Assembly: GCA_020445565.1 (NCBI GenBank)
Contig: JAGRGI010000021.1
Span: forward strand, 4,089-68,088
DNA: 64,000 bases
Origin: Chromatiales bacterium
GTDB taxonomy: Bacteria; Pseudomonadota; Gammaproteobacteria; JAGRCI01
Reading direction: 5' to 3'
The notes beneath the pieces are model-generated. The model ran no database searches. It was not told where the DNA came from and saw only the letters and a program-made list of their open reading frames with translations. The position numbers and the translations under genes are program-made. This document shows positions 2,337 through 64,000 of the stretch, piece by piece (the stretch's first letter is position 1; every line of letters starts with the position of its first letter).

Positions 2337-2374
2337 GGGGTCGTCTCAGAAAACGGAAAAAATCGTACGCTAAG
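2337..2374. repeat. Left terminal inverted repeat (38 bp) of the Tn3-family transposon
   Basis: ggggtcgtctcagaaaacggaaaaaatcgtacgctaag. The tnpA stop codon lies inside it, as is usual for Tn3-family elements. Confidence 0.85.
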
Positions 2375-48100: not shown

Positions 48101-48995
48101 GTTGGAAATCGCCGAGGCCGACGGCGACCTGGACCGTCGCGCAGAGGCCAACCGCGCCCTGGGCAATACCGTATTCTGGACAGGCGATCTGCAAACCGCG
48201 CGCAAGGCAATGGAGAACGCCGTCGCCCTCGCGGCCCAATCCACCAGCGCCGACCGCACGGACGAATACGGGCAAAACCCCGACGTCGCCAATCACGGCA
48301 TGCTGGCCTGGACGGTCTGTTTAAGCGGCTACCCCAAAGACGCAATTCGCCACGCCGGCCTATCCCTGCAACTCGCCCAGACCTCCGGCCACCCCTTCAG
48401 CCTTGCCTTCGCCTGTGGCGTGCACATGTGGATGTACCGGCTTCTGGATGACGGCATCCAAACCCTGGGCTGGGCCGACCGCACCCTGGAACTCACCGAA
48501 GCCAACGGTTTCCCCTACTTCAGTACCGCCGCCCGCGTCCTGCGCGGTTGGGGCCGGGCCAGAAACGGCGAAGGTAAAGCCGGCCTGGAGGAAGCCCTAT
48601 CCGCCGTCACCGCCTGGCAGGAGATGGGCCAGGAAATCGGTGTGCCGGTATTCCTCTACGCCACCGCAGATGCCGCCCAGCTGGCCGGCGACTCCCAACA
48701 AGCGCTGACACTGCTCCGCCACCCCACCCTCACCGCCCGAACCCACAAAGAACGTTGGTACCTGGCCGATTTGCGGCGAATTGAGGGAGAGTGTCATTGG
48801 CAGTCGGGCGGACGAGAATCAGCCTTGCTGGCTTGGAGAGAGGCTTTGCAGGTAGCGCGGGAGCAGAGCGCGCGCTTGATCGCTTATCGTGTCGCGCATA
48901 TGGCTCGGAATTATGGCCTAAGAGATGATGAAATTGGATTGAGAAAAGCGGATTTGGAGATTCCTCAGCCAATAACAAATCCGCATTTCGACTGA
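45186..48995 (+). CDS. Multidomain signalling protein: two adenylate/guanylate cyclase (CHD) domains + STAND/AAA ATPase + TPR repeats
   Basis: CHD1 reads [16 protein letters not shown] and CHD2 reads [10 protein letters not shown]...[15 protein letters not shown]. Walker A is [16 protein letters not shown], followed by long TPR-like helical repeats, 1269 aa in all. Confidence 0.85.
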
Positions 48996-49126
48996 TTTTC
49001 AAACCAGAAATTAGCTGTCGAAACTGCCGCACCGAATCCGCTGCAAAAGCATTCTGAGATACTCGTCACACAATCGGTAAGTGTTACTGGTCTACAATAC
49101 AAAGCAAATTTGATGGATGCGGTATA

Positions 49127-49156
49127 CCGCATGCAACGCCTACCTGTTGCATGCGG
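49127..49156 (+). promoter_or_regulatory. Perfect 11-bp inverted repeat CCGCATGCAAC-N8-GTTGCATGCGG in the AT-rich leader of the large-protein operon
   Basis: This is seen directly. It lies ~135 bp upstream of the likely ATG at 49293, inside an AT-rich segment (48996..49292) that contrasts with the ~65% GC surroundings. Confidence 0.3.
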
Positions 49157-49292
49157 TCATTCCGAACATTCCAGGAATGCGACAGTTTCGGACTATATAA
49201 GGTTTTCTGGGACAAAATTCGGCTTTCGTCCCCGAAAGGAATGCCAGCAAACCGGCAAATGCACGCGATGCTTTGGAATTGAGAACCTCAGG

Positions 49293-52200
49293 ATGACACA
49301 TGCTCAAGTACTGTTCCGGTTACTCGCCGCCCTGTTGCCAGTTGCTGCCATTTCCCCCGGCCATGCCCAAGTTCAGGACAGTTTTTGCGCATCCGTCAGA
49401 GTCGAGGTCCACCAGGAATTCACCCTGGCCCGCCAAGGGTTTGAAGCCACGATGCGGCTCACCAACGAGCTGCCTGATTCGCCACTTACCGATGTCCATA
49501 TTGAAATCACCTTCAAAGACAGCAGCGGCAACACGGTAACCGCAACGCAAGACCCCAATGGGCAAGACGCCCTGTTTTTCTATCGCCTGCAATTTCACGA
49601 AGGGCTTACGAGCGTCGATGGAAGCGGTGCAATTGCCGCTGACTCCGAGGCGGAACTTCGCTGGTTGATCGTCCCAACGGCGGATGCCGCTGGGAATTCG
49701 CCCAACGGCTCGCCCTACCTGATCGGTGCGGAAGTCAGTTACCGGGTCAATGGCGCAGAAAACACCATCCCAGTCGCGCCGGACTTCATCCAAGTAAAAC
49801 CCGTCCCCCGATTGAGCCTGGACTACTTCATTCCCGAGCAGGTCTTCGGCGACGATCCTTTCACACAGTCAGTAGAAGAAGAACCCATTCCCTTCGAACT
49901 GGGTCTACGCGTTGCCAACACCGGACTGGCAACAGCCTACGCTTTGCAGATCGACTCGGCTCAACCTGAAATTACCGAAAATAAACAAGGGCTTCTGGTC
50001 GATTTTCAACTGCTTGGCGCACGCTTGGGGGACGCACCCGCCACGCCGTCACTTTTCTTGAACCTGGGCGATGTCGAATCACAGGCCGCAATCGTGGCCG
50101 CGTGGACCATGACCACATCGCTCACCGGCCAGTTCAAGCGTTTTACCACCGACATCCGGCACGCAGAAGAATTGGGTGGACAACTCACCTCCCTGATCGA
50201 ATCGCCGCGTACCCATAAACTTGTTCACCGAGTTCAAGTTGATCTCCCCGGCCGCGATGAAATAAGCGACTTCCTGGCGAAAGAATCCCTTGGCGACCTT
50301 CGTGTCTATGAATCGGACGGGACGGAGTTCCCCGTGACCGACGTTTCGGAGAACAGTCAGTTGACGGTCGGTTCGACTGATCCCCTTCAGCAAACCGTCC
50401 AGTTGCAGCTCGTCGGCGGACTGGTCTACGCGCAGATTCCCGATCTGAACGAAGGCGCCAAGACCCTGGTCGGCGTCACCCGTTCCGATGGCAAGGTCCT
50501 GTCGGCTCGAAACGCCTGGCTTTCGAAACGACAAGATGATACGACTCATGAATATACCTACTTTGTCAACATATTCGACAGTGTCGTAGAAGGTCAACCA
50601 ACAGGCGAGTACTTGCTTTCTTTTGCCAACCCCATTGCCTCGGAAGCTACGCCGGAACTCGATGTTCCGAACACGATTGACGCCGTTGACGGCGTATCAC
50701 TGAGTTTTGTCGTCTCGGCATTCGTTGGCGATGGATCCATTCCCTCGCTGGCAATGGAATCCGCGCCGGAAACCGCGCAATTTAGCGACGCAGGGGATGG
50801 CACCGGCGTTTTCGATTGGCCCGTCCCGCCCGGCCGTCTGGGTGATTTTACTGTCATATTCAGTGCGGTCAGCAGAAACGAACGCGCGGAAGGACAGACG
50901 CTCATTCGCGTCCGTAGGCCCGGCGACAGTGATGCCGACTATATGGACGATAGCTGGGAGATGGCGCATTTCGGCAGCCTGGAACAGGACGGGTCGGGAG
51001 ATTGGGACGGTGACGGCATCAGCGACCTTGACGAATACCTGAACCAGACCGACCCGACCACCGCCGACGATCCCTGGTCGGTGATTCGCATTGGCAGCCT
51101 GGAAGTGGGTGACCAGCCTGTGGCAGTACCTGGTGCAACTGCTAACGACGTTGTTCTCTTGGGTCCACCATCGGACCTCACCGCAGACCCTGGCCTTGCA
51201 GTGATCTCGGTCGTAGACGAAACACAGATGGGTGTCCGTATTCGCGAATGGAACTATCTGGACGGCGTAGCCCCGAATCAAGCCATCAGCTATCTCGTCC
51301 TGCCCGTTGGCCGCTATTCTCTAGCGGACGGAACCGTATGGGAGGCGGGATATTTTGATTTGGAAGGCGACAGAAACTGGCAACCACAGTCATTCAAGTT
51401 GGATTTCCCTGAAGAACCGACGGTGTATCTGAGTTCCCAGCCCTCTGCCGGCCCGTTGGCCTCTCTGCGCACCCGCGCGATCAGCCGATCCGGATTCGAA
51501 ACTGCGCAGTTCGTCGAGGAAGCACAGCGTGGATCGACGATTCCGCAGAGCCGGATCCATTACTTGGCGATATGGTCGCCCGGAACGGCTGCCAGCCTCG
51601 TCAGCGCAAACGCAGAATTCGCTTTCAGCAGCCAGCAACTGGACTTGGCATTGCAGCAGCGAGACCTCGATTGGGATCTGACGCAACGCGAAGAAATCTC
51701 CGCCGATGAAGAAACGGACCATGTCGGCGAAACCGTACAGCTACTAAAGATCGGTCAGTACGCTTTCGCCCAGATTGCCAGCGACCGCGAGGACGATCCA
51801 TTGATCCTCTATGCCACGCTGGCGGACCGCGATCAGGACAGCATGGCAGATGCCTTCGAGCGCCGCTACGGTCTCGACCCCCAAGATCCGACAGATGCGG
51901 GCCAAGACCTGGACGGCGATGGTTACTCCAATCTGGCGGAGTACCTTGCGAACACCAATCCCGCCGACGCCTCCAGCCTGCCGGATCAGCTGCGATTGAA
52001 GTTCGGGCAAGTGCAGGCAGGGCAGAGCTGGCGAGAAGTGACTTGGGCACAGACCAATGAGCAGACCGTGCCCCTGGTCTTTTTGGGGCCAGCGACCAAC
52101 AACGACCCCTACCCTGGTATCGCCACGCTTTCCGACACTACCGCCAATGGATTCGCGTATCGCTATCGCAACCTGCACACACGCGAGGGAGAGCACGGCG

Positions 52201-53030
52201 AAGAAACCCTGAGCTACCTCGCCATGGTACCGGGCAGGTACTCCATGCCAGACGGTGCAGTTTGGGAGGCTGGGAGTTTCGACTTGCCCCTGGCGGAGAC
52301 CTGGTACCAGCTAGACTACCTAAGTGCCTTTCCTCAGACGCCGGCACTCTACCTTTCGGTACAGAGCCCCGATTACGGCGGTATCGCCAGGGCCCGTTCG
52401 GTCGAACTGAATACCTTCGAGATTATCATCAATCGGCTGGAACCCGACGCGCCGCTGGAGAATATCCACGTCGCCTACCTCGCGGTCTATCATCCGACAG
52501 GCGCCGGAACGCTTGAGCTTTCCGGTAACACCATAAACTATCAGACCATGACCCAAGATACGAACCACCGAGTATCCGATGTCGGTGGGACACCCTTGCG
52601 ACTCGAAATGCCCGCATCGGTGACAGGAAACATCGAACACGGAATTGAACGTATAGCAGTATTGGATCTGCATTCAGAACAGGGAACCGTATGGCTGGCG
52701 CAGGATACCAGTGCCAGCGACACCGCACCGGCAGTCCCCCGAATTTGGTCTATTGTAGATGGCGATAACGATGGAATTCCCGATCTACAGGAACTTCGCT
52801 ATGGTGCCAATCCCCGCAACGCATCGGATGCTGCGCAGGACTCAGACCACGACGGCTTTCGGAATTTCGCCGAAATTCTCTTCGGTACCGACCCATTCGA
52901 TGCGAATGACTCTCCCGGTCCAAACGACGCCCTGCAAACCATCCCGGAAAACCCGGAAGACTGGTGGAACGAACGCCCCACCAACCCAGGCGTAGTAAAC
53001 CAGAGCGGAAACGACAATGCTGCTCAATAA
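49293..53030 (+). CDS. Large secreted protein (1245 aa) with four EF-hand/TSP3-like calcium-binding loops flanking a duplicated ~170-aa domain of unknown function
   Basis: The start is set at MTHAQVLFRLLAALLPVAAISPGHAQ, a signal peptide. The loops are DWDGDGISDLDEYL, DLDGDGYSNLAEYL, DGDNDGIPDLQEL and DSDHDGFRNFAEIL (pattern DxDxDGxxDxxE). The internal repeat reads ...YLxxVPGRYSxxDGxVWEAGxFDL.... Confidence 0.75.
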   Translation: MTHAQVLFRLLAALLPVAAISPGHAQVQDSFCASVRVEVHQEFTLARQGFEATMRLTNELPDSPLTDVHIEITFKDSSGNTVTATQDPNGQDALFFYRLQFHEGLTSVDGSGAIAADSEAELRWLIVPTADAAGNSPNGSPYLIGAEVSYRVNGAENTIPVAPDFIQVKPVPRLSLDYFIPEQVFGDDPFTQSVEEEPIPFELGLRVANTGLATAYALQIDSAQPEITENKQGLLVDFQLLGARLGDAPATPSLFLNLGDVESQAAIVAAWTMTTSLTGQFKRFTTDIRHAEELGGQLTSLIESPRTHKLVHRVQVDLPGRDEISDFLAKESLGDLRVYESDGTEFPVTDVSENSQLTVGSTDPLQQTVQLQLVGGLVYAQIPDLNEGAKTLVGVTRSDGKVLSARNAWLSKRQDDTTHEYTYFVNIFDSVVEGQPTGEYLLSFANPIASEATPELDVPNTIDAVDGVSLSFVVSAFVGDGSIPSLAMESAPETAQFSDAGDGTGVFDWPVPPGRLGDFTVIFSAVSRNERAEGQTLIRVRRPGDSDADYMDDSWEMAHFGSLEQDGSGDWDGDGISDLDEYLNQTDPTTADDPWSVIRIGSLEVGDQPVAVPGATANDVVLLGPPSDLTADPGLAVISVVDETQMGVRIREWNYLDGVAPNQAISYLVLPVGRYSLADGTVWEAGYFDLEGDRNWQPQSFKLDFPEEPTVYLSSQPSAGPLASLRTRAISRSGFETAQFVEEAQRGSTIPQSRIHYLAIWSPGTAASLVSANAEFAFSSQQLDLALQQRDLDWDLTQREEISADEETDHVGETVQLLKIGQYAFAQIASDREDDPLILYATLADRDQDSMADAFERRYGLDPQDPTDAGQDLDGDGYSNLAEYLANTNPADASSLPDQLRLKFGQVQAGQSWREVTWAQTNEQTVPLVFLGPATNNDPYPGIATLSDTTANGFAYRYRNLHTREGEHGEETLSYLAMVPGRYSMPDGAVWEAGSFDLPLAETWYQLDYLSAFPQTPALYLSVQSPDYGGIARARSVELNTFEIIINRLEPDAPLENIHVAYLAVYHPTGAGTLELSGNTINYQTMTQDTNHRVSDVGGTPLRLEMPASVTGNIEHGIERIAVLDLHSEQGTVWLAQDTSASDTAPAVPRIWSIVDGDNDGIPDLQELRYGANPRNASDAAQDSDHDGFRNFAEILFGTDPFDANDSPGPNDALQTIPENPEDWWNERPTNPGVVNQSGNDNAAQ

Positions 53031-53844
53031 ATACGCTCCCTGGATTGCGGGTGCTCTCATAGTGTGGGCGCAGACCGCTCTCGGCGCGGAATCTGCCGTT
53101 GTCGCGAAGCATTTCCGTTTCACCTACAGCGCAACCAACACCAGTAGCCAAACGATTTCCGAGGCGGATATACGTGTTCCGATTCCGCAACGGAAAACCC
53201 CCTATCAGACCCGAGTCGACGTCAGCTCCAGCCTTCCAATCACGGCCACAGGAGTAGACTGGGCAGAGGTGAGAGTCCCGGCGACTCCCCCCTTCGGGCG
53301 AGTCGATTTCCTATTGAATGTGAGCATGTCCTTCGAACGCGAAGCCAAAGCGGAACCTGCCGACAAAGCCTATTTGCAAGGCGAGCGCTTTATCGAAAAG
53401 GACGACAATAAAATCCGCTCGACAGCCCTGCGACTGATGAAAGGAAACGACACCAGATCGACCCTAAGCAATCTCTATCGCTGGGTAAGAACATCTCTCC
53501 GCCCGCTCGGCTACACGGCAAACCCCCGAGGCGCCCTTCAGGCGTTCCAGTCCCGCCAGGGCGACTGCACGGAATACGCCCTTTTGCTCACGGCGATGGC
53601 CCGGTCCATTGGCATCCCTGCGCGTGTCGCTGAAGGCTATGTCTATCGTGAAAGCGCGAGAATTCGCCCAACCGACTACCACAACTGGGTGGAAGTCCAA
53701 ATTGAAGGCACTTGGTTTCCGGTGGATACCTACGAAGGCAGGTTCCTGGACAGGACAAGCGATTACTTGGTGATGAACTACTGGGGTAGTCAGATAATGC
53801 CCGGCTTTGTCAAATTGAGAGACTGGATTGTACGGCTTGAGTAG
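53017..53844 (+). CDS. Secreted transglutaminase-like cysteine protease (Transglut_core / BTLCP-like; Cys-His-Asp)
   Basis: The signal peptide is MLLNKYAPWIAGALIVWAQTALGA. The core motif is QGDCTEYALLLTAMARSIGIPARVAEGY...DYHNWVEVQIEGTWFPVDTY. His lies at Cys+38 and Asp at His+15. It overlaps the upstream gene by 14 bp. Confidence 0.75.
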   Translation: MLLNKYAPWIAGALIVWAQTALGAESAVVAKHFRFTYSATNTSSQTISEADIRVPIPQRKTPYQTRVDVSSSLPITATGVDWAEVRVPATPPFGRVDFLLNVSMSFEREAKAEPADKAYLQGERFIEKDDNKIRSTALRLMKGNDTRSTLSNLYRWVRTSLRPLGYTANPRGALQAFQSRQGDCTEYALLLTAMARSIGIPARVAEGYVYRESARIRPTDYHNWVEVQIEGTWFPVDTYEGRFLDRTSDYLVMNYWGSQIMPGFVKLRDWIVRLE

Positions 53845-53859
53845 AAGTGCTCTAGCTGA

Positions 53860-53881
53860 TTCATTACTTTTTCATTACTTT
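53860..53881 (+). repeat. Perfect tandem direct repeat TTCATTACTTT x2, 48 bp upstream of the giant-protein ATG
   Basis: ttcattactttttcattacttt is two exact 11-bp units, possibly a response-regulator-type tandem site. Confidence 0.35.
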
Positions 53882-53929
53882 CAAGAAGCACATCCACGGT
53901 GGCGAGATCAAACGATTTAGGAAACTAAA

Positions 53930-56900
53930 ATGGAATTATCCAAACGTGCTCTAGACCTGCACCACATACCCCGTCTAGTGACTTTCTTAGCCTCGCTCAC
54001 GGCAGCCTTGAGCAAAATCACCTCAATCGCGCTGATGGGGTTGTACTCTGCCGTTGCGCAGCCTCCAAATTATGAACCTATTGTCATCTCGGAAGATCGG
54101 GAAATACTTATATCGGATCTGAGTTTTGACGGAAAGATAGTTCACGTCGTCAACGGTGCAATACTAACTTTGCAAGGTGAGCATTATTTTCGCGAATTAC
54201 ACCTTCTCAATGGAGGGAGGTTGACCCACCAAGATGCTAATGATCTTGAGGGACCAACTCCGATAGTACATGCAGATTACCTAGTGGTAGACGTGAATTC
54301 ACGAATAGATGTTTCTGGAAAAGGAATGATCAGCATCGAAGATCCGTCTGGTCCTGATGCATATACCGATCCCTACGTAGGCGCCAGTCATGGAGGGCGC
54401 GGCGGACCATCTAGTGTTCGCAATTCAGATCCCACCTATGGAGACTATCGAAAGCCGCGCACAGTTGGCCACTCCTCCAATCTCTATGAGCGTGGTGGCG
54501 GAGCAATTCATTTGCAAATCGAAGACCTCGTGGTAGACGGTGAAATTTCGGCGGACGGCGCAACCCCGTCTTGGGGCGGTGCCAGCGGAGGGTCAATCTG
54601 GATCCAATGCAATCGGCTCAGCGGTACAGGGACAATTCATGCAAACGGCAGCAAAAAGACCTATGGCAGCGGAAGCGGCGGCGGAGGAGGGAGAATTGCT
54701 CTAGAATATAGAGTATTGGACAACTTCAACATTTCAACTCAAGTTCAGTCCTACGGCGGAAACAGGCGCAGTTCGCCGTACGTTTCCGGCAGCGCGGGTA
54801 CCGTATATGTGCGGAACGTAGAATCGGCTCATGGCGAACTCCGAATTGACAATACACCTCGCGGCATTGACAGCATTCCTTTCGAGCTTGCGGGAAACGT
54901 CGACGACGTTGTAGTAGTTGGCAATGCGTTATTAGCAATACCTGAACACACGTACCTATATGGAATTAGGGGTACTAAATCAGGAGGAATATTGAATTTA
55001 GTCGGTGATCTAGAAACCTTCGAAGATCGCTTGCATGTCGATGGGTACACACTCCAAATGCATGGTGGGACCCGTTTCTGGAGTGAGGTCCTAATTTCAA
55101 ATGGCGGCATACTAACGCACTCCCCTGCCAAAAGCAGCGATGATCCAGGTCTTGAGCTACACGCTGGATATCTGGAAATTGACCAAAACTCAGCAATACG
55201 TCTAGACGGAATGGGTTCGGAAGGAGACGTTACGCAGCGAACAGGAGCAAGTCATGGCGGCCGTGGCGGTGCCGAATCCTCCAATAGCTCGCCGGCCGTT
55301 TATGGCGACCATCTTCAGCCAAACACTCACGGACAAGGCATTACCACGAACAGTAGTCAACGAGGAGGAGGAAAGCTGCACTTAGTTGTCGACGACTTGC
55401 TGTTGGATGGAACGATTTCTGCCAATGGCGAGGCAGGTCTTTACCGCTGGCCGAGTGGCGGAGGCGGAGCGAGCGGAGGTTCCATTTGGATAGAAGCAGG
55501 CACAATCGCAGGAATTGGAAAAATTTACGCCAATGGCGGCAGCTCCTACGACTATCGCGACACCGAATACCCAACCGGTGGCGGAGCTGGCGGAAGAATT
55601 GCCGTTTACTTCGATAATGCCCAAGATAATTTCCTCCTGAATCATATTTTTGCGATGGGAGGGTACGGATACCGCGGTGGCCAACAGGGCGGAGCGGGAT
55701 CGGTTTATTACCGTGAAAACTCCGCGGAGTTCGGGACCATCAAGGCGGACAACGGCGGTATAGCGTCAATGGCACCACTGGAACTACACGGTCAGATTAA
55801 TGCTCGTCTCATACTCAATTATGCGTGGGTTCGTCTGACCGAAGATACCCACCTTCGCGGTATCATTGGGGGCAACAAAGGAAGTTTGACTACATTCGGC
55901 AAGTTGACGTTAGACTCAGACAATCTGCTGGTTGATAACTACTATCTAGAATTGCAGGGGATTGTTGATCAGTTTCGTGAAATAGTCCTCGTGAATGGAG
56001 GCGCATTGGGACATCGGATAGCTCTAGCACAGAGCGGCCCCGGACTCACATTGGTCGCGGATCGAGTGGAGATAGACGAGACCTCCCGAATCAACGTCAG
56101 TGGCAAGGGTTTGAGGGAGTCATATGGGACGGTCGTCGAAGGATCTGCTGGTGCAAGTCATGGAGGTATCGGCGGCGCTGCGAATGGAGTGGAGTCCAAT
56201 ATCCCCTACGGAAACGATCATTCCCCCATTACTTTCGGGCAAGGTGCGTCGGATACTTACGCGCGCAGAGGAGGGGGCGCAATCAAGTTGGTTGCGGAAG
56301 AGGTTATAGTTGACGGAAAGATCATTGCAAACGGAAATAATGGTGCTTATACATATGGTGAGACTCCCGGCGGCGGCGCAAGCGGCGGATCAGTATGGAT
56401 TCAAACCGATAAAATTAGCGGTACTGGATATATAAGCGCGAATGGAGGCTACGGCGACGGTCCGACTAAGCCCGCGGGCGGTGGTAGTGGCGGTCGAGTT
56501 GCGATCTACTACCGCGATGCCACAACTTTTAATATCAAGGATAACATACAAGTCACTGGTGGCGCAGGCAGGTTTGACGGCCTAGCGGGTTCCGACGGAT
56601 CAATATATTTGGAAAATACGTCGGAACTTCTAAAGATTTCAAATGTTAGCCCCAACTATGTAGTCAATGCACCAGTAGTGGGAATTTCTATCACTTTTAA
56701 TCGAAGCTTCAACCAACAAGGTGCAATTGATCAGTACATACAAATTGGCGCCCCCAATGGAGAGGAGGTTTTGTATAGTGTTGTATTTCCAAAAGAAGAA
56801 GAGGTCGTCCTACAGCCGCCACAGCCACTTGCACACCCAGGCACCTATATCGTCTCGGTTTCTCCCGGCATTACAACCCCCGCCGGCACGCCCATGGACC

Positions 56901-59900
56901 AGGATGGCGACACCATACCTGGAGAACCGACGGACGATCATTATGTATTCACCTTCACTATTGACGCCGGACCGCCCGGAACGGTTACTCCCGCAGTTGC
57001 AGCTATCGCAGACGGCTCCAAAGCAACACTCGATTGGACAAGTTACGACCAAGCAGCCAACGGCGGCGACATCCAGTCGTTCCGTATCTACCGCTCTTCC
57101 CAGACATTTACAAATCCCACGTCAACAACACTGGTAGAGGAACTTAGCGCCGGCACAACGAGCTACCAACTCAGCGGACTACAACCCGGCGTCCCCACTT
57201 ACGTTGCGGTGGTCGCAGTCGATGAACTTGGCAACGCCCTGGACGAAGTGTCTCCTGTTGTTGTCATCACCCAAGACCAGATTCCCCCCGGAGCCATCTC
57301 CAACCCCCAATCCATCTCCGGCCTCGGGTCGATCCACTTCCAATGGAATCCACCTACCGAGAACGCTGCCGACCTGGCAAGCTATCGCGTTCGTACCGAT
57401 GCGGGAGAACTCATCGCGACGCTGAGTTCCGGGCAAACTGAGCATCTGATCAACGGTTTGGCCCCTGGCAGCGTGCGGGTTGTGCGGGTGTCTGCCGTCG
57501 ACCATTCCGGAAATGAGTCGGTTGCGACGCGCATGGAAGCGGTTACCTGGCTACCCAATCCAAGCGCGGTGCAGGCCAGCCCCGGCAACGGTTCCGCCGA
57601 AGTGCAGTGGCAGCCAGTGGCGCCGGCGCAGTGGATCTCCAGCTATCGCGTCTATGTGTCGCAGACGCCATTCGACAACGTGTCGGGGATGACACAATTC
57701 ACCCCGTTCACCAGTTCTCCGGCAACGCTCAGCGGACTCACCAACGAGGTCGACCATTACGTCGCCATCGTTACCGAGAACACCAGCGGTGGATTCAATC
57801 CAGAGGTAAGCAGCGTACGTGTCCGTCCGTCAACGGACCTGATCGCGCCGCAGATCGACGATGCGCGCTTCGACACCCAGCCGATCTCTGCCGGGCAGAA
57901 CTTTACCCATTCCGGTTTGCTTTCCGTCACCGCGTCGGACAACAAGGCCGTTGTACGCGTGGAAGCCTGGCTCGGCGAGAATCCCGTGGGTATTACACAA
58001 TCTTCCGATGCACAGGGTCGGTGGTCGATTCCGCTGAGTCTGGACGGTCTCAGCGACGGCCCTGCCCTGCTGCGCCTCAGCGCCTTCGACATTGTTGGTA
58101 ACTCTGCTTCCGTTGAGTTCCCCATTTCCATCGCACTGGCACCACCCAATCCCCCCATCCTGAGCGCTCCGGCGACGGGTACGGTGACGGCGGACGCCTC
58201 AATCCAGGTTCAAGGGCTGGCCGCTCAAGGCGCGGAAGTCAGGCTGCTGGTAAACGAGCTTACCACCACGCCCTGGCTTGCCCTGGGTACGAACGGCCAG
58301 TTCACTGCATCCGTGCCCTTGACCTCGGGAGACAATCGAATCACCGCCCGTGTACGCAACCGCGCGGGTGAGAGCCTTCCCAGCGCTGCGATCATCATCG
58401 AGCGCGACGATAGCCGTCCGGGCGCCCCCCTCTCCCTGGTGGCCGACCCTGGCGAAGCTGGCACGGTGCAGTTGCGGTGGGTGGCACCGGCCGACGGAAC
58501 GGCAGTGGGCTATGACCTCTATCGGGCAGGCTCGCCATTCGCCAACGTAACCGACGCCATTCGAGTAAATGCAAATCGCATTACCGAAAACCGTTTCGAC
58601 GACCTTCCCGTGGAAGATGGGATCTACTACTACCGGGTAGTGGCCTACAACAGTCTGGGCACCCCCAGCGAACCCTCCAACGCCGTCTCCGCCACGGCCG
58701 ACGGTACGCTCCCGACGGTTACCACCGTTGCCTTTACCTCGGCCGGCGCACCCTACGATTCCGCGGGTATGCGCTACGGCGCAGGCAAGATCGACGTGAA
58801 TATCGAGCTGAGCGAACCCCTGGAAGCGCCGCCCTACCTGAATCTCGCCCTCGACGGATTTGGCGTGATCCCCATCGCGGCCGTGGCTTCCGACCCCACC
58901 CACTACCTTGGCAAGATCGATTCCCTGCCGCAAGGGCTGACCGGAACCGCCAGCCTCCAGTTTTCTGGACGGGACCTCGTTGGCAATCGTGGCTCGGCTA
59001 TCCTTGCCCCGGCGCAGATTCAGGTCGACACCCGTGGCCCCAGAGGAACCTCCCTGACCCTCATCCCAGCCAGCCCGATACGCAACTACGAAGACGCACC
59101 CGTCACCGTGAGCATTGATCTGATTCTGGACGAGGCCCCTGCCAGCGGCACCACCCCCCAGCTTGGCTACAACCTCTTTCCGGGCAGCAATGATCCCCTC
59201 GGCGAGATACCCCTGTTGCCCATCTCGGCGACCCATTGGCAGGGCGAACTCACCCTGCCGGGCAGCGCCGGAAAAGACACTCCACAGATACTTGGATTCT
59301 CGCTCCTGGTTCAAGACGACCTGGGCAACCAAGGAACCGAACTGGCCAACTCGGGCGGCTGGCAAATCTATCAGGACGAATTGCCCCCCTTGGACACTCC
59401 CCAAGGATTCAGCGCCAAGGCCCTGCCTGCGGGCAAGGTAGAATTACGCTGGAATGCCGTGGAAGGTGCGCTGGCCTATCAACTCTATCGCCAATCGGCG
59501 GCAGGGTCGGCGGATGCCTTCCAACGGGTAGAGGGCGAACTCACCCTTATCGATCAACCCGGTAACGACGGACCCTGGAGCTACAGCGTAGCCAGTATCC
59601 GCAGCGCCAATGGCCAAGAATCGACGAGTGCGCAAAGCCCGGCCATTACCGTGCAGGTGGACTCGCAAGCGCCGGACGCACCGCAACAGTTCTCGGTACT
59701 TCTGCATCCTGCCGGCATCGTCGGCCAGTGGCAAACCCCCGCCGCCACGGACATTGACCACTATCGCTATTATCGTGCTGCTGAGCAAACCGGCCCTGGC
59801 GTCAACGCTGATTTGGTCCTGGACCAGATCGTCGTACAACAGGCAGTGGACTCCCGCCCCGATCCCACGAAACCGGTCTATTTCGTCACCGCTGTCGACA

Positions 59901-62866
59901 AGGCCGGAAATGAGTCCTCTCCCTCGAACTATGGCTATCTCAACACCGATCTGCTCTTGCCCGTGCAAAGCTTGCATGTGGAACGCATCAACGGTTCGGC
60001 GCCGTCGCTTTCCTGGCAGCACAACGGCAACCATCTGGCCGGCTACAACCTGTATCTGGGCAACCCCGGTCAACGTATAAAGCTCAACGATGCGCCCTAC
60101 GCACCATCGCAGTGGACGGACCTGGGGTACTCCGGCGGAGAGCGCCGCTACACCATCGAAGCAGTAGACGCCAACGGCGAAGCCAGTCCGGCACGCAGCC
60201 TGCTGCTACCCGAGCTTGTCGTAACCGCCCACGCGGATCAAACCGTCCGCCGCGGCTTGATGAACCAAAGGCTCTATAGGGTAGAAAACCGCGGCGCCTA
60301 CGCCGTGCAGGGAATTCACCTAGAACTGATGCTCGCCGACCGCATCCATCGCTCAGAAATCTTCTCCCTGCTCGCCGGGGAGACAGCGGACATCCCCCTG
60401 ACCATCGGCGGTTACCCTGAATTGCCAGACACCGCGGCGGCCCAACGCAGTGTCGTAGTCGAACCGGAACAAGGTCTGAAAGTGACGCTCACCCGCGCGG
60501 AGACCGTCGACGTGCGCGACGGCGGTCTGGGAATCGAACTACAGGCTCAGAACCTGCTGCGCGGTGCCATCGGGCAGGCCAGCTTCGTGATTGAAAATTT
60601 TGGCAACGCGGAGCTTCAGGTGGTCCTCGCCCGCAACAACGGTGCGAACGACAGTAACGACGTCAGCCTGCGACTGCTGGACGATGAATCCAACCCGCTG
60701 ACTGTCCAAGCAATTCGCCTCGCGTTGGGCGACGCAATCACCACCGACGCCAATGGCATCAGCAGTGCGCGAATCGCCCCCGGCCAGCGCTACCGCTCAC
60801 CGTGGATCGATTTCCCCATTCCCGCGGCCGCACCACAGTCCGTCGAATTACGGCTAGACATAACACGGGTTCACCACGAATTAGGCACCGAACGCGCGGT
60901 CACTCTCTCCGGAGGCACCACCCGCATCCCGCTGAATCTTGTCGACACGGAATACCGCGGCCATCTCGATACCGCCACACCGGAAGTCTCCTTCGGCGAA
61001 CTGCCCATCGTACTCACCGGCCGAGCCTTGCGCCGCACGGACGATGCGCCCATGGCCTATGTTCCACTGACACTGATATTGGAACGGGGAGGACTGGAAG
61101 AACGCATCCAGATCGAAACCGATGCGGCCGGGCGATTCTCGCACCGCTACACCCCGAATCCGGCCGCCTACGGACGCTACCGGGTCTCAGTACTACATCC
61201 GGACCTGACCGAACGGCCGGAGCATGGCGCCTTCGTCCTGCAACATCTGGACATTCAACCCAGGGGCATCGATGTCGACATACCCCGTCACGATCAGCGC
61301 CAACTACCTATCACCCTGGTGGCCGGCGAAGGTACGGAATTGGCCCAGGTGCATCTCGCACTTCGGGCAGAAGACCAAGCCGGCCAAACGCTGCCAGCCG
61401 GCATCGAATTCAACGCCGCTCCCGCCACCCCCATGGCCTCCGGGCAGCGCCTGACCCTGCGACCCACCCTGGTCGCGGACGACACCGCGCCCGAAGCGGG
61501 CACATTGATACTGGCAGTGCTCGATGGTCAGGCCCCCCTGGGCGCCATCACGGTGAACTACCATTTCGGCGAAGCCCTGCCAAGGCTCAGCGCCACGCCA
61601 CTATCCCTGGAACTGGGCCTGACGGGTGACGAGCAACGGATCGAAACGGTTCGATTCAGCAACACCGGCCTTGCCACCCTCGAAGGGCTGACCTTGGAAC
61701 TGCGCCATGCCGACGGCAGCCCCGCCCCGGCATGGACGGGGCTTACCGTGCCCGCGCAAAGCGGCAATCTGGCCGTCGGCGAGAGCCGCGAAGTGGGCGT
61801 GCGAATCCAGCCGGCCGGACTCGTCCCCAGTGGCCAGTACGTCCTGCGCCTGCGGGCTGAGGGCGCCAATCACCCGCCATTGGAAATCCCGCTCACCGTG
61901 AGGATCTCGGAGTCCGGTCGCGGCGATCTGGAATTCAAACTGGCCGATATGTATACCGGCCTGCGCGATCCCGACACCAAAGAGATCCACCAAGGTTTGG
62001 CGGGTGCGGAGATCGAAATACGTCACGACACCCTCACCGGCGAAGTACACCGCAAACTCAGCGATTCACTTGGAGAAGCACGCTTCGAAAACTTACCCGC
62101 CGGTCGCTACCACTACCGGGTCAGCGCCCCTCGCCACCTCGACGCTACCGGTTTGCTGCGGGTGCAAGCCGAACTTCTCACCCAACAGCCCCTGTTCCTG
62201 GACTACCGCCTGGTCAGCGTCGAATGGCAGGTTCGGGAGATCGTGCTGGAAGACCGCTACGACCTGGTGCTCAACCTGGACTTCGAGGCCGATCTACCCG
62301 CCGCCGTGGTCGTAGTCGAACCCAGCAGCGTTCCCCTGCCCCTAATGCGTGCCGGCGAATCCTTCCAGGGAGAACTGAAGATCACCAATCACGGACTGGT
62401 CCGTGCGGACGAGCTGGAACTGGCCCCGCCGCCGGACAGCGACCTGCTGCGTTTCGAGTTCGGCCCCCTGCCCGACACCCTCGGCGCCAAGCAGAGCCTG
62501 ACCATCCCCTACCGCATCACTGCCTTGCAGGACTTCGAGCCGGATGGAGAGGCAACTGGTGCGGGCTGCTATACCGAGCGGCCTTGTAGCGAGCTGCGAT
62601 GCAGCTACGTGTGTGCCAACGGAGATCGACGCCCGCTGGCGACGCCCATGTGCTGGGTACGCACCATCGGTACCTGTTCCGGCGGCGCGACGGCAAGCGG
62701 TGGCGATACTATTCAATGGGGCCACGTCAGCGGCGATGCCTACACGCCGCCCTGGGTCAGCCCACCGGGCGATGGCCAGGCGGAATCCGAGCCCGATCCG
62801 CTGCCAGCCTGCCGCGTGGTGGGCAAGATCTGCGAGAAGACCGGCGACAGCGGCGGCTTGTTTTAA
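53930..62866 (+). CDS. Giant surface protein (2978 aa): three ~340-aa Gly-rich beta-helix-like repeats, Ig-like and ~10 FN3 domains, CARDB-like and CarboxypepD_reg-like domains, Cys-rich C-terminus
   Basis: Each repeat recurs with GASHGG(R/I)GG, RGGG(A/K)I(H/K)L, GG(G)ASGGS(I/V)WI and GGG(G/A/S)GGR(I/V)A(L/V/I)(E/Y)(Y/F). The FN3 signatures include FRIYRSS...YVAVVAVDELGN, YDLYRAG...YYYRVVAYNSLG and YRYYRAA...VTAVDKAGNES. CARDB-like motifs include VENRGAYAVQGIHLEL. The C-terminal Cys cluster is CYTERPCSELRCSYVCANG...CWVRTIGTCSGG... Confidence 0.85.
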   Translation: MELSKRALDLHHIPRLVTFLASLTAALSKITSIALMGLYSAVAQPPNYEPIVISEDREILISDLSFDGKIVHVVNGAILTLQGEHYFRELHLLNGGRLTHQDANDLEGPTPIVHADYLVVDVNSRIDVSGKGMISIEDPSGPDAYTDPYVGASHGGRGGPSSVRNSDPTYGDYRKPRTVGHSSNLYERGGGAIHLQIEDLVVDGEISADGATPSWGGASGGSIWIQCNRLSGTGTIHANGSKKTYGSGSGGGGGRIALEYRVLDNFNISTQVQSYGGNRRSSPYVSGSAGTVYVRNVESAHGELRIDNTPRGIDSIPFELAGNVDDVVVVGNALLAIPEHTYLYGIRGTKSGGILNLVGDLETFEDRLHVDGYTLQMHGGTRFWSEVLISNGGILTHSPAKSSDDPGLELHAGYLEIDQNSAIRLDGMGSEGDVTQRTGASHGGRGGAESSNSSPAVYGDHLQPNTHGQGITTNSSQRGGGKLHLVVDDLLLDGTISANGEAGLYRWPSGGGGASGGSIWIEAGTIAGIGKIYANGGSSYDYRDTEYPTGGGAGGRIAVYFDNAQDNFLLNHIFAMGGYGYRGGQQGGAGSVYYRENSAEFGTIKADNGGIASMAPLELHGQINARLILNYAWVRLTEDTHLRGIIGGNKGSLTTFGKLTLDSDNLLVDNYYLELQGIVDQFREIVLVNGGALGHRIALAQSGPGLTLVADRVEIDETSRINVSGKGLRESYGTVVEGSAGASHGGIGGAANGVESNIPYGNDHSPITFGQGASDTYARRGGGAIKLVAEEVIVDGKIIANGNNGAYTYGETPGGGASGGSVWIQTDKISGTGYISANGGYGDGPTKPAGGGSGGRVAIYYRDATTFNIKDNIQVTGGAGRFDGLAGSDGSIYLENTSELLKISNVSPNYVVNAPVVGISITFNRSFNQQGAIDQYIQIGAPNGEEVLYSVVFPKEEEVVLQPPQPLAHPGTYIVSVSPGITTPAGTPMDQDGDTIPGEPTDDHYVFTFTIDAGPPGTVTPAVAAIADGSKATLDWTSYDQAANGGDIQSFRIYRSSQTFTNPTSTTLVEELSAGTTSYQLSGLQPGVPTYVAVVAVDELGNALDEVSPVVVITQDQIPPGAISNPQSISGLGSIHFQWNPPTENAADLASYRVRTDAGELIATLSSGQTEHLINGLAPGSVRVVRVSAVDHSGNESVATRMEAVTWLPNPSAVQASPGNGSAEVQWQPVAPAQWISSYRVYVSQTPFDNVSGMTQFTPFTSSPATLSGLTNEVDHYVAIVTENTSGGFNPEVSSVRVRPSTDLIAPQIDDARFDTQPISAGQNFTHSGLLSVTASDNKAVVRVEAWLGENPVGITQSSDAQGRWSIPLSLDGLSDGPALLRLSAFDIVGNSASVEFPISIALAPPNPPILSAPATGTVTADASIQVQGLAAQGAEVRLLVNELTTTPWLALGTNGQFTASVPLTSGDNRITARVRNRAGESLPSAAIIIERDDSRPGAPLSLVADPGEAGTVQLRWVAPADGTAVGYDLYRAGSPFANVTDAIRVNANRITENRFDDLPVEDGIYYYRVVAYNSLGTPSEPSNAVSATADGTLPTVTTVAFTSAGAPYDSAGMRYGAGKIDVNIELSEPLEAPPYLNLALDGFGVIPIAAVASDPTHYLGKIDSLPQGLTGTASLQFSGRDLVGNRGSAILAPAQIQVDTRGPRGTSLTLIPASPIRNYEDAPVTVSIDLILDEAPASGTTPQLGYNLFPGSNDPLGEIPLLPISATHWQGELTLPGSAGKDTPQILGFSLLVQDDLGNQGTELANSGGWQIYQDELPPLDTPQGFSAKALPAGKVELRWNAVEGALAYQLYRQSAAGSADAFQRVEGELTLIDQPGNDGPWSYSVASIRSANGQESTSAQSPAITVQVDSQAPDAPQQFSVLLHPAGIVGQWQTPAATDIDHYRYYRAAEQTGPGVNADLVLDQIVVQQAVDSRPDPTKPVYFVTAVDKAGNESSPSNYGYLNTDLLLPVQSLHVERINGSAPSLSWQHNGNHLAGYNLYLGNPGQRIKLNDAPYAPSQWTDLGYSGGERRYTIEAVDANGEASPARSLLLPELVVTAHADQTVRRGLMNQRLYRVENRGAYAVQGIHLELMLADRIHRSEIFSLLAGETADIPLTIGGYPELPDTAAAQRSVVVEPEQGLKVTLTRAETVDVRDGGLGIELQAQNLLRGAIGQASFVIENFGNAELQVVLARNNGANDSNDVSLRLLDDESNPLTVQAIRLALGDAITTDANGISSARIAPGQRYRSPWIDFPIPAAAPQSVELRLDITRVHHELGTERAVTLSGGTTRIPLNLVDTEYRGHLDTATPEVSFGELPIVLTGRALRRTDDAPMAYVPLTLILERGGLEERIQIETDAAGRFSHRYTPNPAAYGRYRVSVLHPDLTERPEHGAFVLQHLDIQPRGIDVDIPRHDQRQLPITLVAGEGTELAQVHLALRAEDQAGQTLPAGIEFNAAPATPMASGQRLTLRPTLVADDTAPEAGTLILAVLDGQAPLGAITVNYHFGEALPRLSATPLSLELGLTGDEQRIETVRFSNTGLATLEGLTLELRHADGSPAPAWTGLTVPAQSGNLAVGESREVGVRIQPAGLVPSGQYVLRLRAEGANHPPLEIPLTVRISESGRGDLEFKLADMYTGLRDPDTKEIHQGLAGAEIEIRHDTLTGEVHRKLSDSLGEARFENLPAGRYHYRVSAPRHLDATGLLRVQAELLTQQPLFLDYRLVSVEWQVREIVLEDRYDLVLNLDFEADLPAAVVVVEPSSVPLPLMRAGESFQGELKITNHGLVRADELELAPPPDSDLLRFEFGPLPDTLGAKQSLTIPYRITALQDFEPDGEATGAGCYTERPCSELRCSYVCANGDRRPLATPMCWVRTIGTCSGGATASGGDTIQWGHVSGDAYTPPWVSPPGDGQAESEPDPLPACRVVGKICEKTGDSGGLF

Positions 62867-62890
62867 CGGACCCCAGAAAGAGAAAAAACC

Positions 62891-64000
62891 ATGGACACGA
62901 AGCGTTTGCACGTTCTGTTGCTGATCGTGCTGTTGACCCCCTGCTGGGCCTGGGCTGGCCTCACCGACGGCGGCCCCGACCACCGCCACGGCCTCTACCA
63001 CCATGCCGAGACCGATCTGAGCCTCCCCTACTTCGGCGCCCAGATCCGCGTCACCCGCCAGTGGAACGCCGACCACTGGGACTTCAACCGCAATTGGGAC
63101 GACCTGATCCTCGAAGGTCCAGCCGATGAACCGGAGCGCATTCTGCGCGCCGGCGAATACGTCTACGAGCGGCGCGGCTTCGCCAGCGACAACCGCCCCC
63201 TGTACCGCGCCGTCGACAGCCCCGGCAAGAAGCTCTATGCCACCGATAGCGGCTGGCGCTGGGAGGACCTGCAAGGCCAGTGGATCGATTACGACCCCCA
63301 GGGCCGCCTGCTGCGCTTTGGTGACCGCAACGACAACCGCCTGCGGGCCGAGCGCAACGAGCAAGGCCGGATCGGCAGTCTGCACGACGCCAGCGACCAG
63401 ATCTGGCTCAGCCTTGCCTACGATACCGGCGGCCATCTCATCGAAGCCACCGACCGCCACGGCCGCAGCGTCGCCTATCACTGGCAGGGCGCCGACCTCA
63501 CCGGCGTCACCGATGCCCGCGGGCAGGATTGGGCCTACGGCTATGTCACCTTGCTGGAAAAACGCTATCTGGCCAGCCTGACCAACCCCTTGGGCGAGAG
63601 CCTGAGCCTGGACTACGTGGAACTGCCCGGCGGCCTGCAAACGATCTGCGGCACCGGCGAGCCCAGCGGTCATTGGATCGTCGAGGAAGTGGAAGACCCG
63701 GAAACCGGTGAGCTGGTGCAACGCGAGCGCTATGTGCTCGACGAGGTGGAAGGCCGTTCCGACTGCATCACCTACACCGCCCCACCGAGCGTGCAAATGA
63801 TCAAGATGCGCTGGTCCGACGGCCCGTACCGCAGCCTGCGCTATTACTATCAGGACACCGAGCGGCGCTACATCCTCATCGAGCGCAGCAGCGACGGCGC
63901 CGAACGTGAGCGCTGGTATGACCTGCGCGGGCGCGTGGTGCGCGACGTGCGCGCCGGTCAGACCGTCAGCCAGCAGCGTATCGCCAGCGACGCCATGCGC
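62891..64000 (+). CDS. RHS / YD-repeat protein with Sec (possibly lipoprotein) signal; runs off the window
   Basis: My own translation from ATG 62891 is MDTKRLHVLLLIVLLTPCWAWAG.... The YD repeats are YDPQGRLLRFGDRNDNRL..., AYDTGGHLIEATDRHGRSVAYHW and TDARGQDWAYGY. It is not in the ORF track because no stop lies in the window. Confidence 0.8.
   Translation, partial: MDTKRLHVLLLIVLLTPCWAWAGLTDGGPDHRHGLYHHAETDLSLPYFGAQIRVTRQWNADHWDFNRNWDDLILEGPADEPERILRAGEYVYERRGFASDNRPLYRAVDSPGKKLYATDSGWRWEDLQGQWIDYDPQGRLLRFGDRNDNRLRAERNEQGRIGSLHDASDQIWLSLAYDTGGHLIEATDRHGRSVAYHWQGADLTGVTDARGQDWAYGYVTLLEKRYLASLTNPLGESLSLDYVELPGGLQTICGTGEPSGHWIVEEVEDPETGELVQRERYVLDEVEGRSDCITYTAPPSVQMIKMRWSDGPYRSLRYYYQDTERRYILIERSSDGAERERWYDLRGRVVRDVRAGQTVSQQRIASDAMR

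Follow-up and report, generated by a model that had tools for sequence, protein, structure and literature searches.

Two published studies come close to the genes described here. The survey of Zhang, Aravind et al. (2012, PMC3482391) includes a Sec/'T2SS' class of RHS toxins, one subgroup of which carries an inactive transglutaminase domain at its N-terminus, and lists zero signature neighbourhood genes for that class. The paper on bacterial teneurin-like proteins (TLPs; Raoelijaona et al. 2026, PMC13018210) explicitly calls the delivery of the TLP cage an open question. How could an RHS or teneurin-like cage be delivered without T6SS or Tc machinery? The locus analysed here bears on this question. 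Its four genes, G1 to G4, lie at the end of a 64-kb stretch of DNA (the window), and we consider it fairly probable that they form one copy of a conserved, Sec-dependent and T6SS-independent RHS/YD polymorphic-toxin cluster with a new accessory module. No description of a cluster of RHS, giant protein, transglutaminase and G1 was found in the literature searched, and the cluster is widespread in genomes. An earlier note on this DNA had likewise matched the combination to no known system.

The four open reading frames are co-directional on the forward strand and stand head to tail. G1 (49293-53030) encodes 1245 aa counted from an ATG, and its longest open reading frame starts earlier, with a TTG at 49110. 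G2 (53017-53844) encodes 275 aa and shares 14 bp with the end of G1. G3 (53930-62866) encodes 2978 aa and follows after a gap of 85 bp. G4 starts at 62891, 24 bp after G3, and runs for 370 codons without a stop to the window end at 64000. All four products begin with a hydrophobic stretch which, read by eye from the sequence, looks like a Sec signal. The close packing of four secreted proteins in the earlier note is thus confirmed by the coordinates. Terminator-like sites inside the block are not more frequent than in shuffled sequence, therefore a single operon is plausible. The upstream cyclase-AAA_16-TPR gene (45186-48995) was considered as a further member of the system and rejected, for it is not kept beside the cluster in other loci. 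Metagenome contigs nearly identical to the locus carry frameshifts in G2 and G3.

Do these genes stay together in other genomes? The N-terminal module of G1 occurs at no fewer than 564 loci in species-representative genomes, mainly of Desulfobacterales and Gammaproteobacteria. Some of its carriers are sulfur-cycle bacteria that grow as filaments or form aggregates. A phmmer search over 91 loci, some with incomplete flanks, found the transglutaminase at 61, the G3 core at 42 and RHS at 25. Among 33 independent loci with full flanks the giant is adjacent to G1 in 29, the transglutaminase is present in 20 and RHS in 16, always on the same strand; as the flanks are 10 kb long, the recurrence of the latter two is judged only within that distance. 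Two gene orders recur, giant, RHS, G1, an optional Ig-rhodanese gene and transglutaminase, or else transglutaminase, G1, Ig-rhodanese gene and giant, and the transglutaminase is never separated from G1 by more than one gene. The genes are thus co-conserved in related genomes and behave as a functional unit, a point on which the idea of a four-gene system in the earlier note depended. The Ig-rhodanese protein is a fifth partner, common in the other loci. Its gene is absent from the locus studied here, so that the cluster may exist here in a reduced or variant form. The cluster itself has no gene for an outer-membrane translocator, and neither such genes nor T6SS genes are conserved nearby in the related loci.

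G1 was described before as a secreted protein with calcium-binding loops, and a Pfam profile search indeed finds bacterial TSP3 Ca-binding repeats in it (E 3e-11). By its sequence, a signal peptide occupies residues 1 to about 26, followed by a family-specific, all-beta module at residues ~30-450. There are zero Pfam matches at E<=1 within residues 1-450. After this module come an Ig-like domain, the TSP3 repeats and two copies of a domain of ~250 aa with a weak H-type-lectin match. The N-terminal ~590 aa are the portion conserved among homologues, and the cysteine C32 is invariant in all 22 homologues compared. In the AF2 model (pLDDT 83) the protein is a string of Ig/cadherin-like sandwiches.

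G2 is a transglutaminase-fold enzyme, matching Transglut_core (PF01841) with an E value of 5e-22 and 78.6 bits against a cut-off of 23. The proposal that it is a secreted-type enzyme with an active-site cysteine holds: the triad Cys184-His222-Asp237 (codons 53566-53568, 53680-53682 and 53725-53727, forward strand) is intact, and it is kept in at least 98% of 52 cluster homologues. The nearest solved structures to the core are 3isr, a putative cysteine protease of C. hutchinsonii, and TgpA (6g49). The stretch of ~180 aa before the cysteine was given the right length in the earlier note but is not an unusual extension, because the core of 3isr starts at nearly the same offset.

The giant G3 is built of three parts which differ in conservation. 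The N-terminal variable region (53930-56629) holds a signal peptide and three Gly-rich repeats of ~295 aa, which are delimited by motif periodicity. These repeats resemble AgmC_N (NF047640, in 3 stretches with scores below the cut-off), and a beta-helix fold is presumed for them. GC falls locally to 0.51 here, and no other part of the giants is so poorly conserved, the region being matched in only 5 unrelated loci. The conserved stalk (56630-61990) is made of FN3, bacterial Ig and CARDB/NEW3-like beta-sandwich domains, and residues ~1000-2920 share 33-37% identity with giants from other phyla. Pfam matches in G3 are fn3 (E 7e-22), Big_13 and CarboxypepD_reg (E 5e-11). The last of these, a transthyretin-like domain at aa 2688-2745, belongs to the conserved tail (61991-62866), in which a beta-sandwich, a Cys-rich knot and a Gly-rich linker are also found. 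The knot (62567-62833, aa 2880-2968) contains 8 of the 9 cysteines of the protein, so the label 'Cys-rich' given to the giant before fits the tail and not the rest. A sequence search of the tail against the PDB returned zero matches.

What is such a tail for? In relatives, as at L013, L015, L022, L051 and L058, one open reading frame covers both proteins, aligning with G3 as far as aa ~2920 and with G4 starting at aa ~30-40 (at aa 99 in L013). Among the 149 best representatives that carry the G3 tail, 35 run straight into RHS in frame and 106 stop at the tail. The cysteine pattern of the tail is kept in fused and stand-alone forms, and in fused proteins the first YD repeats follow the tail after 40-230 aa. 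These alignments suggest that the giant serves the RHS toxin as its carrier half, and in many relatives the two make up one polypeptide, a relationship that had been overlooked. G2 is kept with both the fused and the split form, therefore its job would be something other than joining or separating G3 and RHS.

G4 is an RHS/YD-repeat shell (62891-64000, cut by the window end) with its own signal peptide and a family N-terminal motif. Its repeats match PF05593 and TIGR01643, and the visible part shows no PAAR match. It is known here as 370 N-terminal codons, and a toxin domain and an immunity gene would fall past the window end. The homologues at syntenic loci show what such a protein looks like at full length. 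Split RHS homologues that start inside their locus each have a signal peptide and the shared N-terminal motif. There are 6-13 YD repeat matches in each syntenic homologue, and most of the full-length ones examined carry the PxxxxDPxGL core. The C-termini after DPxGL, 110-330 aa long, are mutually unrelated. In Thiothrix this end consists of PT-HINT and a barnase-type ribonuclease, and a Barstar gene follows; in Kangiella an ankyrin gene lies downstream of RHS. The syntenic RHS genes are thus toxin genes with immunity partners, the downstream immunity-type genes being taken from these two loci with gene calls.

One scenario for the cluster can be drawn as follows. All four proteins would be exported by Sec. 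G4 would be the toxin cage and G3 its giant carrier, which has a variable, adhesin-like head and a conserved FN3/Ig stalk. The tail of the carrier would dock to the RHS shell, or form one covalent chain with it as in many relatives. G1 and G2 would be dedicated accessory factors, co-inherited with the giant and RHS. G2 may act on G1, its constant neighbour, and perhaps also on the tail of G3, giving a covalent maturation of the assembly; transamidation, for cross-linking or anchoring, is the preferred chemistry, with endoproteolytic processing as a nearly equal alternative. The assembled G1/G3 structure might then present the RHS cage for delivery to neighbouring cells, while kin would be protected by the product of a downstream immunity gene. 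The substrate, chemistry and role of G2 in this scenario are inferred, and so are the surface location, the route through the outer membrane and the target cells. An RHS cage, once folded, would probably be too big to pass by the Sec-coupled routes that are known. With no translocator found in or near the cluster either, surface display is only presumed.

A different scenario was given by the earlier note, in which the cluster recalls LapG and LapA: G2 would be a periplasmic protease, dependent on Ca, and would release an adhesin from the surface by cutting the giant at a di-alanine near its N-terminus. It is true that G2, a secreted enzyme, has the papain fold and an intact triad, that its gene stands beside a giant repeat protein, and that Ca-binding repeats exist in the cluster. 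However, the family, the cleavage site and the secretion type all differ. PF06035 (BTLCP/DUF920) does not match G2 even at E<=10, the matches being PF01841 and weak clan relatives. In a Foldseek search LapG structures rank only 23rd and 46th with 14% identity, behind 3isr, TglA and TgpA, a ranking obtained with a low-confidence model of G2 (pLDDT 54, poor outside residues ~122-240). The TAAL taken for a processing site occupies residues 24-27 of G3, within the N-terminal export-signal region. A relative of 58% identity lacks it, as do all other giant homologues, whose signal peptides are plain, and no (T/A/P)AA(G/V) site lies near the G3 N-terminus, where the giants vary most. None of the four products has an RTX/T1SS signature, and no RTX family matches G3, as the earlier note itself had observed of its C-terminus. 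Across 80 related loci no family of the T1SS or LapD kind is conserved, and the sampled open reading frames of the window contain none. The giant is built for Sec export rather than T1SS, and release of the LapA kind is very improbable. Could G1 to G3 instead be a cross-linked surface fibre for aggregation or biofilm, with RHS as a frequent passenger or a structural cap? The modules of G1 and G3 are of adhesin type (Ig, FN3, cadherin-like, lectin and TSP3) and their ends vary, aggregate-forming and filamentous sulfur-cycle bacteria are among the carriers, and RHS is seen in fewer than half of the full-flank loci. But the missing RHS is largely an artefact of the flanks, for in the order that starts with the transglutaminase the end of the giant lies beyond 10 kb. 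The in-frame fusions of tail and RHS, the hypervariable RHS C-termini and the immunity-type genes in the two loci also speak against a passenger. A fibre for adhesion or matrix is therefore unlikely, though it is the most serious of the alternatives.

The remaining alternatives explain the cluster by known cages. It might be a TLP locus (PMC13018210) split over two genes, since its order of transthyretin-like domain, inserted domain, Cys-rich part, plug-like N-terminus and YD shell resembles the TTR-TIP-FN-plug-NHL-YD order of TLPs. TLP structures are matched through the YD repeats, and TLP-positive genomes and cluster loci share genera and one strain, M. taiwanensis. Yet Pfam models for NHL and FN-plug, which are not the HMMs of that paper, have 0 matches in five RHS proteins of the cluster, fused or split, and the interval between tail and YD repeats is too short for an NHL propeller. 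The TTR-like CarboxypepD_reg domain is present upstream of RHS. In sequence the tail region does not resemble the solved TLP ahead of the YD repeats. Among solved structures the T6SS Rhs shells are nearer to the RHS shell (1e-63) than the TLPs (1e-42), and the TLP reported for M. taiwanensis, of 2258 aa, does not agree in length with the cluster RHS gene of that strain (1548 aa). Membership in the TLPs was rejected for lack of NHL and FN-plug, and the reading is improbable, more so than a fibre. The adjacency of a giant protein and an RHS cocoon also recalls the Tc (ABC) toxins, in which case G3 would be the A-type translocator and G4 the BC cocoon. TcB/TcC chains do match weakly through the RHS core, but no other RHS class matches so poorly (1e-8 or worse), the TcA, TcB, SpvB and beta-propeller families are unmatched, and G3 is a chain of Ig/FN3 beads with no TcA fold. 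This candidate was rejected too, and it is the least credible of all.

Why should this toxin cluster be of concern? It supplies conserved candidates for the delivery of cages without T6SS or Tc machinery: an enzyme of its own, a partner built of Ig repeats, and a carrier which in some loci is one protein with the cage. Since hundreds of loci in species-representative genomes have the cluster, and its carriers include cultured bacteria such as Kangiella, Microbulbifer taiwanensis and M. hainanensis, Thiothrix caldifontis, Desulfoluna spongiiphila and Motiliproteus, the question can be approached by experiment. At least two of its conserved modules are undescribed in current family libraries, namely the N-terminal module of G1, with no Pfam coverage, and the pre-RHS tail of G3, with partial coverage only. 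A bolder idea, which we put forward tentatively and hold to be somewhat doubtful, is that G1, the transglutaminase-fold enzyme, the giant and in many loci the Ig-rhodanese protein form a self-contained, unrecognised apparatus that assembles and presents RHS cages outside diderm cells without the help of a T6SS. If this holds, it would be a new route of contact-dependent delivery, and the carrier, with its adhesion stalk, transthyretin-like domain, Cys-rich knot and YD shell, may be kin of the bacterial stock behind teneurin-type receptors.

How does the cluster compare with known systems as a whole? With LapG/LapA it shares a secreted cysteine enzyme of the papain/transglutaminase clan encoded next to a giant repeat protein, while it has PF01841 instead of PF06035 and is without di-alanine site, retention module, RTX/T1SS signal and LapD. 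TgpA of P. aeruginosa and 3isr resemble G2 in core, overall size and offset of the catalytic cysteine, but neither is known to be tied to RHS toxins or to giant proteins, and they act on other or unknown substrates. The Sec/'T2SS' RHS class (PMC3482391) has a signal peptide in place of PAAR/VgrG and a transglutaminase-fold module tied to RHS, and it resembles the cluster also in the RHS/YD shell seen here and in the DPxGL core, hypervariable toxin and downstream immunity gene of the homologues. It differs in that its transglutaminase is fused and inactive, whereas that of the cluster is separate with an intact triad, and in the cluster a neighbourhood of several genes is conserved; that survey does not describe the giant carrier, the G1 family or the Ig-rhodanese partner. 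The TLPs (PMC13018210) and the metazoan teneurins are likewise large, surface-type, Sec-dependent proteins with adhesion and transthyretin-like domains. TLPs also have a YD shell enclosing a polymorphic toxin, an immunity gene downstream and a delivery route yet unknown, in overlapping taxa. Unlike them, the cluster has no NHL propeller or FN-plug signature, its shell is nearer to the T6SS type, and carrier and shell are often separate genes, and the accessory G1, transglutaminase and rhodanese genes are not mentioned in the TLP paper. The T6SS Rhs effectors (such as RhsA 7q97, RhsP 8h8a and Tse15) have the closest shell sequences and share the RHS core and cleavage motif with the homologues. 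In contrast to them the cluster has no PAAR, VgrG or chaperone; its RHS protein begins with a Sec signal, and the partner of that protein is a giant of Ig and FN3 domains.

Four co-directional genes, each with a hydrophobic, signal-peptide-like start (read directly off the sequence, with no predictor), occupy the end of the window. The ORF listing and translation place G1, a protein with Ca-binding repeats (1245 aa), at 49293-53030; G2, a transglutaminase-fold enzyme (275 aa), at 53017-53844; G3, a giant protein of 2978 aa, at 53930-62866; and G4, an RHS/YD protein, from 62891 to the window end, where its frame is still open after 370 codons. The junction sequences agree with the arrangement in the earlier note: G2 overlaps G1 by 14 bp, and gaps of 85 bp and 24 bp precede G3 and G4. 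Terminator-like sites are no commoner within the block than in shuffled sequence. On the same strand, 297 bp upstream, a gene (45186-48995, +) encodes a 1269-aa protein with adenylate/guanylate cyclase, AAA_16 and TPR parts. Its match to the TOMM kinase/cyclase fusion family scores below the cut-off of that family; the gene was rejected as a cluster member, since other genomes do not conserve it beside the cluster. Farther away are a Tn3-family transposase at 2370-5336 (-) (DDE_Tnp_Tn3, E 8e-159) and, near it, a MerR-methyltransferase fusion at 6928-8109. Two metagenome contigs from different samples (L006 and L007) are 99.97-99.99% identical to positions 46677-64000; single-base indels in them shift the reading frame of both the transglutaminase and the giant gene, as a result of either pseudogenisation or assembly error.

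Do these genes belong together? Their synteny, on which the earlier note had made its proposal depend, recurs in related loci. The N-terminal ~590 residues of G1 form a large family, found at 564 or more loci in a scan of species-representative genomes, in contrast to G2, which has almost no neighbours in a word-indexed search. Cluster loci lie mostly in Desulfobacterales/Thermodesulfobacteriota and Gammaproteobacteria, and the carriers include Kangiella, Microbulbifer, Thiothrix, Sedimenticola, Thiomargarita, Hahella and Motiliproteus. When the window proteins were compared with six-frame ORFs of loci with truncated flanks, the transglutaminase was found in 61/91, the G3 core in 42/91 and RHS in 25/91. 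For independent loci with full 10-kb flanks, a giant is adjacent in 29/33, a transglutaminase in 20/33 and RHS in 16/33, all on the same strand. Absent members mostly fall outside the 10-kb flank, given lengths of 7-10 kb for the giants and for some G1 homologues. The recurrent orders are giant, RHS, G1, (Ig-rhodanese protein), transglutaminase, and transglutaminase, G1, Ig-rhodanese protein, giant; the called genes around two G1 homologues run giant, RHS, immunity-type gene, G1 homologue, (rhodanese protein), PF01841 enzyme. This Ig-rhodanese protein is a fifth partner, secreted and of ~300 aa, with a DUF1573 Ig-like part and rhodanese domain(s), present in 41 loci (including L010 14074-14928 and L015 7459-8823) and not encoded anywhere in the window. 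A Cys/CxxC at its C-terminus is conserved, and the Kangiella form is without the canonical rhodanese active-site Cys. Some genomes hold two copies of the cluster, such as one Desulfospira chromosome (L013 and L051) and one Desulfosarcina MAG (L021 and L024), and two whole copies per genome are typical of polymorphic-toxin loci.

Most full-length syntenic RHS proteins have the RHS core motif DPxGL followed by unrelated C-termini of 110-330 aa. The Thiothrix protein ends with PT-HINT and a barnase-type ribonuclease, followed by a Barstar gene, and in Kangiella an ankyrin protein is encoded downstream. Judged from these syntenic genes, the cluster is a polymorphic-toxin system; the toxin end of G4 itself, like its immunity gene, would lie past the window edge. 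The structures nearest to the RHS shells are T6SS-type Rhs (E ~1e-53 to 1e-63), followed by bacterial teneurin-like proteins (TLPs; ~1e-32 to 1e-42), with Tc BC components far weaker. No PAAR, VgrG, TcA or TcB family was found.

How is G4, with its RHS/YD repeats, related to the giant? The N-terminal region of G3 has three ~295-aa Gly-rich repeats, seen by motif periodicity, with sub-threshold similarity to AgmC_N; a stalk of FN3, Big and CARDB-like sandwiches follows, and then a tail with a transthyretin-like CarboxypepD_reg domain (aa 2688-2745) and a Cys-rich end. The earlier description of the giant as Cys-rich fits this tail, which holds 8 of its 9 Cys (62567-62833), and not the rest. Stalk and tail are kept across giants while the head varies; GC falls to 0.51 at 54001-56000, over the variable N-terminal repeats, against ~0.58-0.65 around; recombination or a recent acquisition may have given the gene this head module. 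In five Desulfobacterales-type loci (blastp), a single ORF aligns with both proteins, with G3 as far as aa ~2920 and with G4 beginning at aa ~30-40 (at aa 99 in one locus); the two parts are connected by a short linker, Gly-rich and ~75-175 aa long. Searched exhaustively with HMMER, G3 residues 2500-2978 gave 496 cluster representatives at E<=1e-30; among the best 149 of them, 106 stop at the tail, 35 run into RHS repeats and 8 do otherwise. The tail Cys pattern (GC...C.NG...C.GG, a Gly-rich run, C) is common to split and fused forms, and split RHS genes that start inside their locus have their own signal peptide and a common N-terminal motif, also present in G4. The best reading of these alignments is one device in which giant and RHS protein form the two halves.

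The earlier note likened the arrangement to LapG/LapA, in which a BTLCP protease processes a giant adhesin, and likened a di-alanine TAAL in the giant to LapG-type sites. This interpretation is rejected, as enzyme family, cleavage site and RTX/T1SS/LapD features all fail. G2 matches Transglut_core PF01841 (E 5e-22) and has no match to PF06035 even at E<=10. Among solved structures, 3isr and the periplasmic domain of TgpA are nearest to it, with LapG structures 23rd and 46th in a Foldseek ranking whose query was a low-confidence G2 model, core only. About 180 aa do precede the catalytic Cys, but such an extension is ordinary for the family, since the 3isr core stands at almost the same offset. 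TAAL (G3 residues 24-27) lies inside the N-terminal export-signal region and is not conserved: it is missing from a relative of 58% identity and from every other giant homologue, all of which have plain signal peptides at their start. No (T/A/P)AA(G/V) site occurs near the G3 N-terminus, no T1SS or LapD-like family recurs across related loci and, as the note had said of the giant, no RTX family matches G3. The proposed active Cys is present as C184 (53566-53568), the sole Cys of G2. G2 is probably active, because the Cys184-His222-Asp237 triad is retained in at least 98% of 52 cluster transglutaminases.

Then what does this enzyme act on? Loci with a fused G3 and RHS keep it, and so do loci in which the two are split, so neither linking nor parting the two is its task. 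It is always at most one gene away from G1, which it overlaps here, a position that suggests G1 as partner or substrate. Bacterial TSP3 Ca-binding repeats and a weak match to H-type lectin lie in the C-terminal half of G1; for residues 1-450, Pfam gives no match even at E<=1. In a confident model (pLDDT 83), the N-terminal module is a row of some five beta-sandwiches, with generic adhesin or cadherin Ig as its only fold matches, and on this model is neither enzyme nor barrel. With this module conserved and the adhesin-type C-terminus variable, G1 looks like the mirror image of the giants. Its single Cys, C32 (49386-49388), is invariant in 22/22 sequences and lies ~6 residues into the mature protein. 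The placement of Cys, with C32 alone in G1, the catalytic one alone in G2 and the last 100 residues of G3 holding nearly all of that protein's, suggests intermolecular disulfide or thiol chemistry.

A scenario can be proposed. All four proteins would be exported by Sec; G3 would carry or dock the RHS cage through its transthyretin-like and Cys-rich tail, and G2 would covalently mature G1 and/or that tail, with transamidation or anchoring slightly favoured over proteolysis. G1 and G3 would adhere to the target by their variable ends, and the toxin would be released from the cage into neighbouring cells while an immunity gene protects kin. The outer-membrane step is the largest gap, as no translocator conserved in the cluster was found.

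The earlier suspicion of an unfamiliar four-gene system holds: the cluster is an RHS polymorphic toxin to which a new, widespread module of accessory and carrier proteins belongs. No description of the cluster was found in the full-text literature searched, and this absence is no proof of novelty. For the question of how YD-cage toxins are deployed without a T6SS, the cluster offers concrete starting points. In the 2012 polymorphic-toxin survey (PMC3482391), RHS toxins with signal peptides belong to a Sec/T2SS class for which no signature neighbourhood genes are given, and transglutaminases occur with RHS as inactive fused domains only. The 2026 TLP paper (PMC13018210) defines TLPs by FN-plug, NHL and YD, finds no evident delivery machinery and does not mention transglutaminase. 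Unlike TLPs, cluster RHS proteins have no NHL or FN-plug matches and merely 40-230 aa ahead of the YD repeats. TLP-positive genomes in its supplement share genera and one strain, Microbulbifer taiwanensis LMG 26125 (L082), with the cluster loci, and there the TLP genes appear to be loci separate from the cluster.
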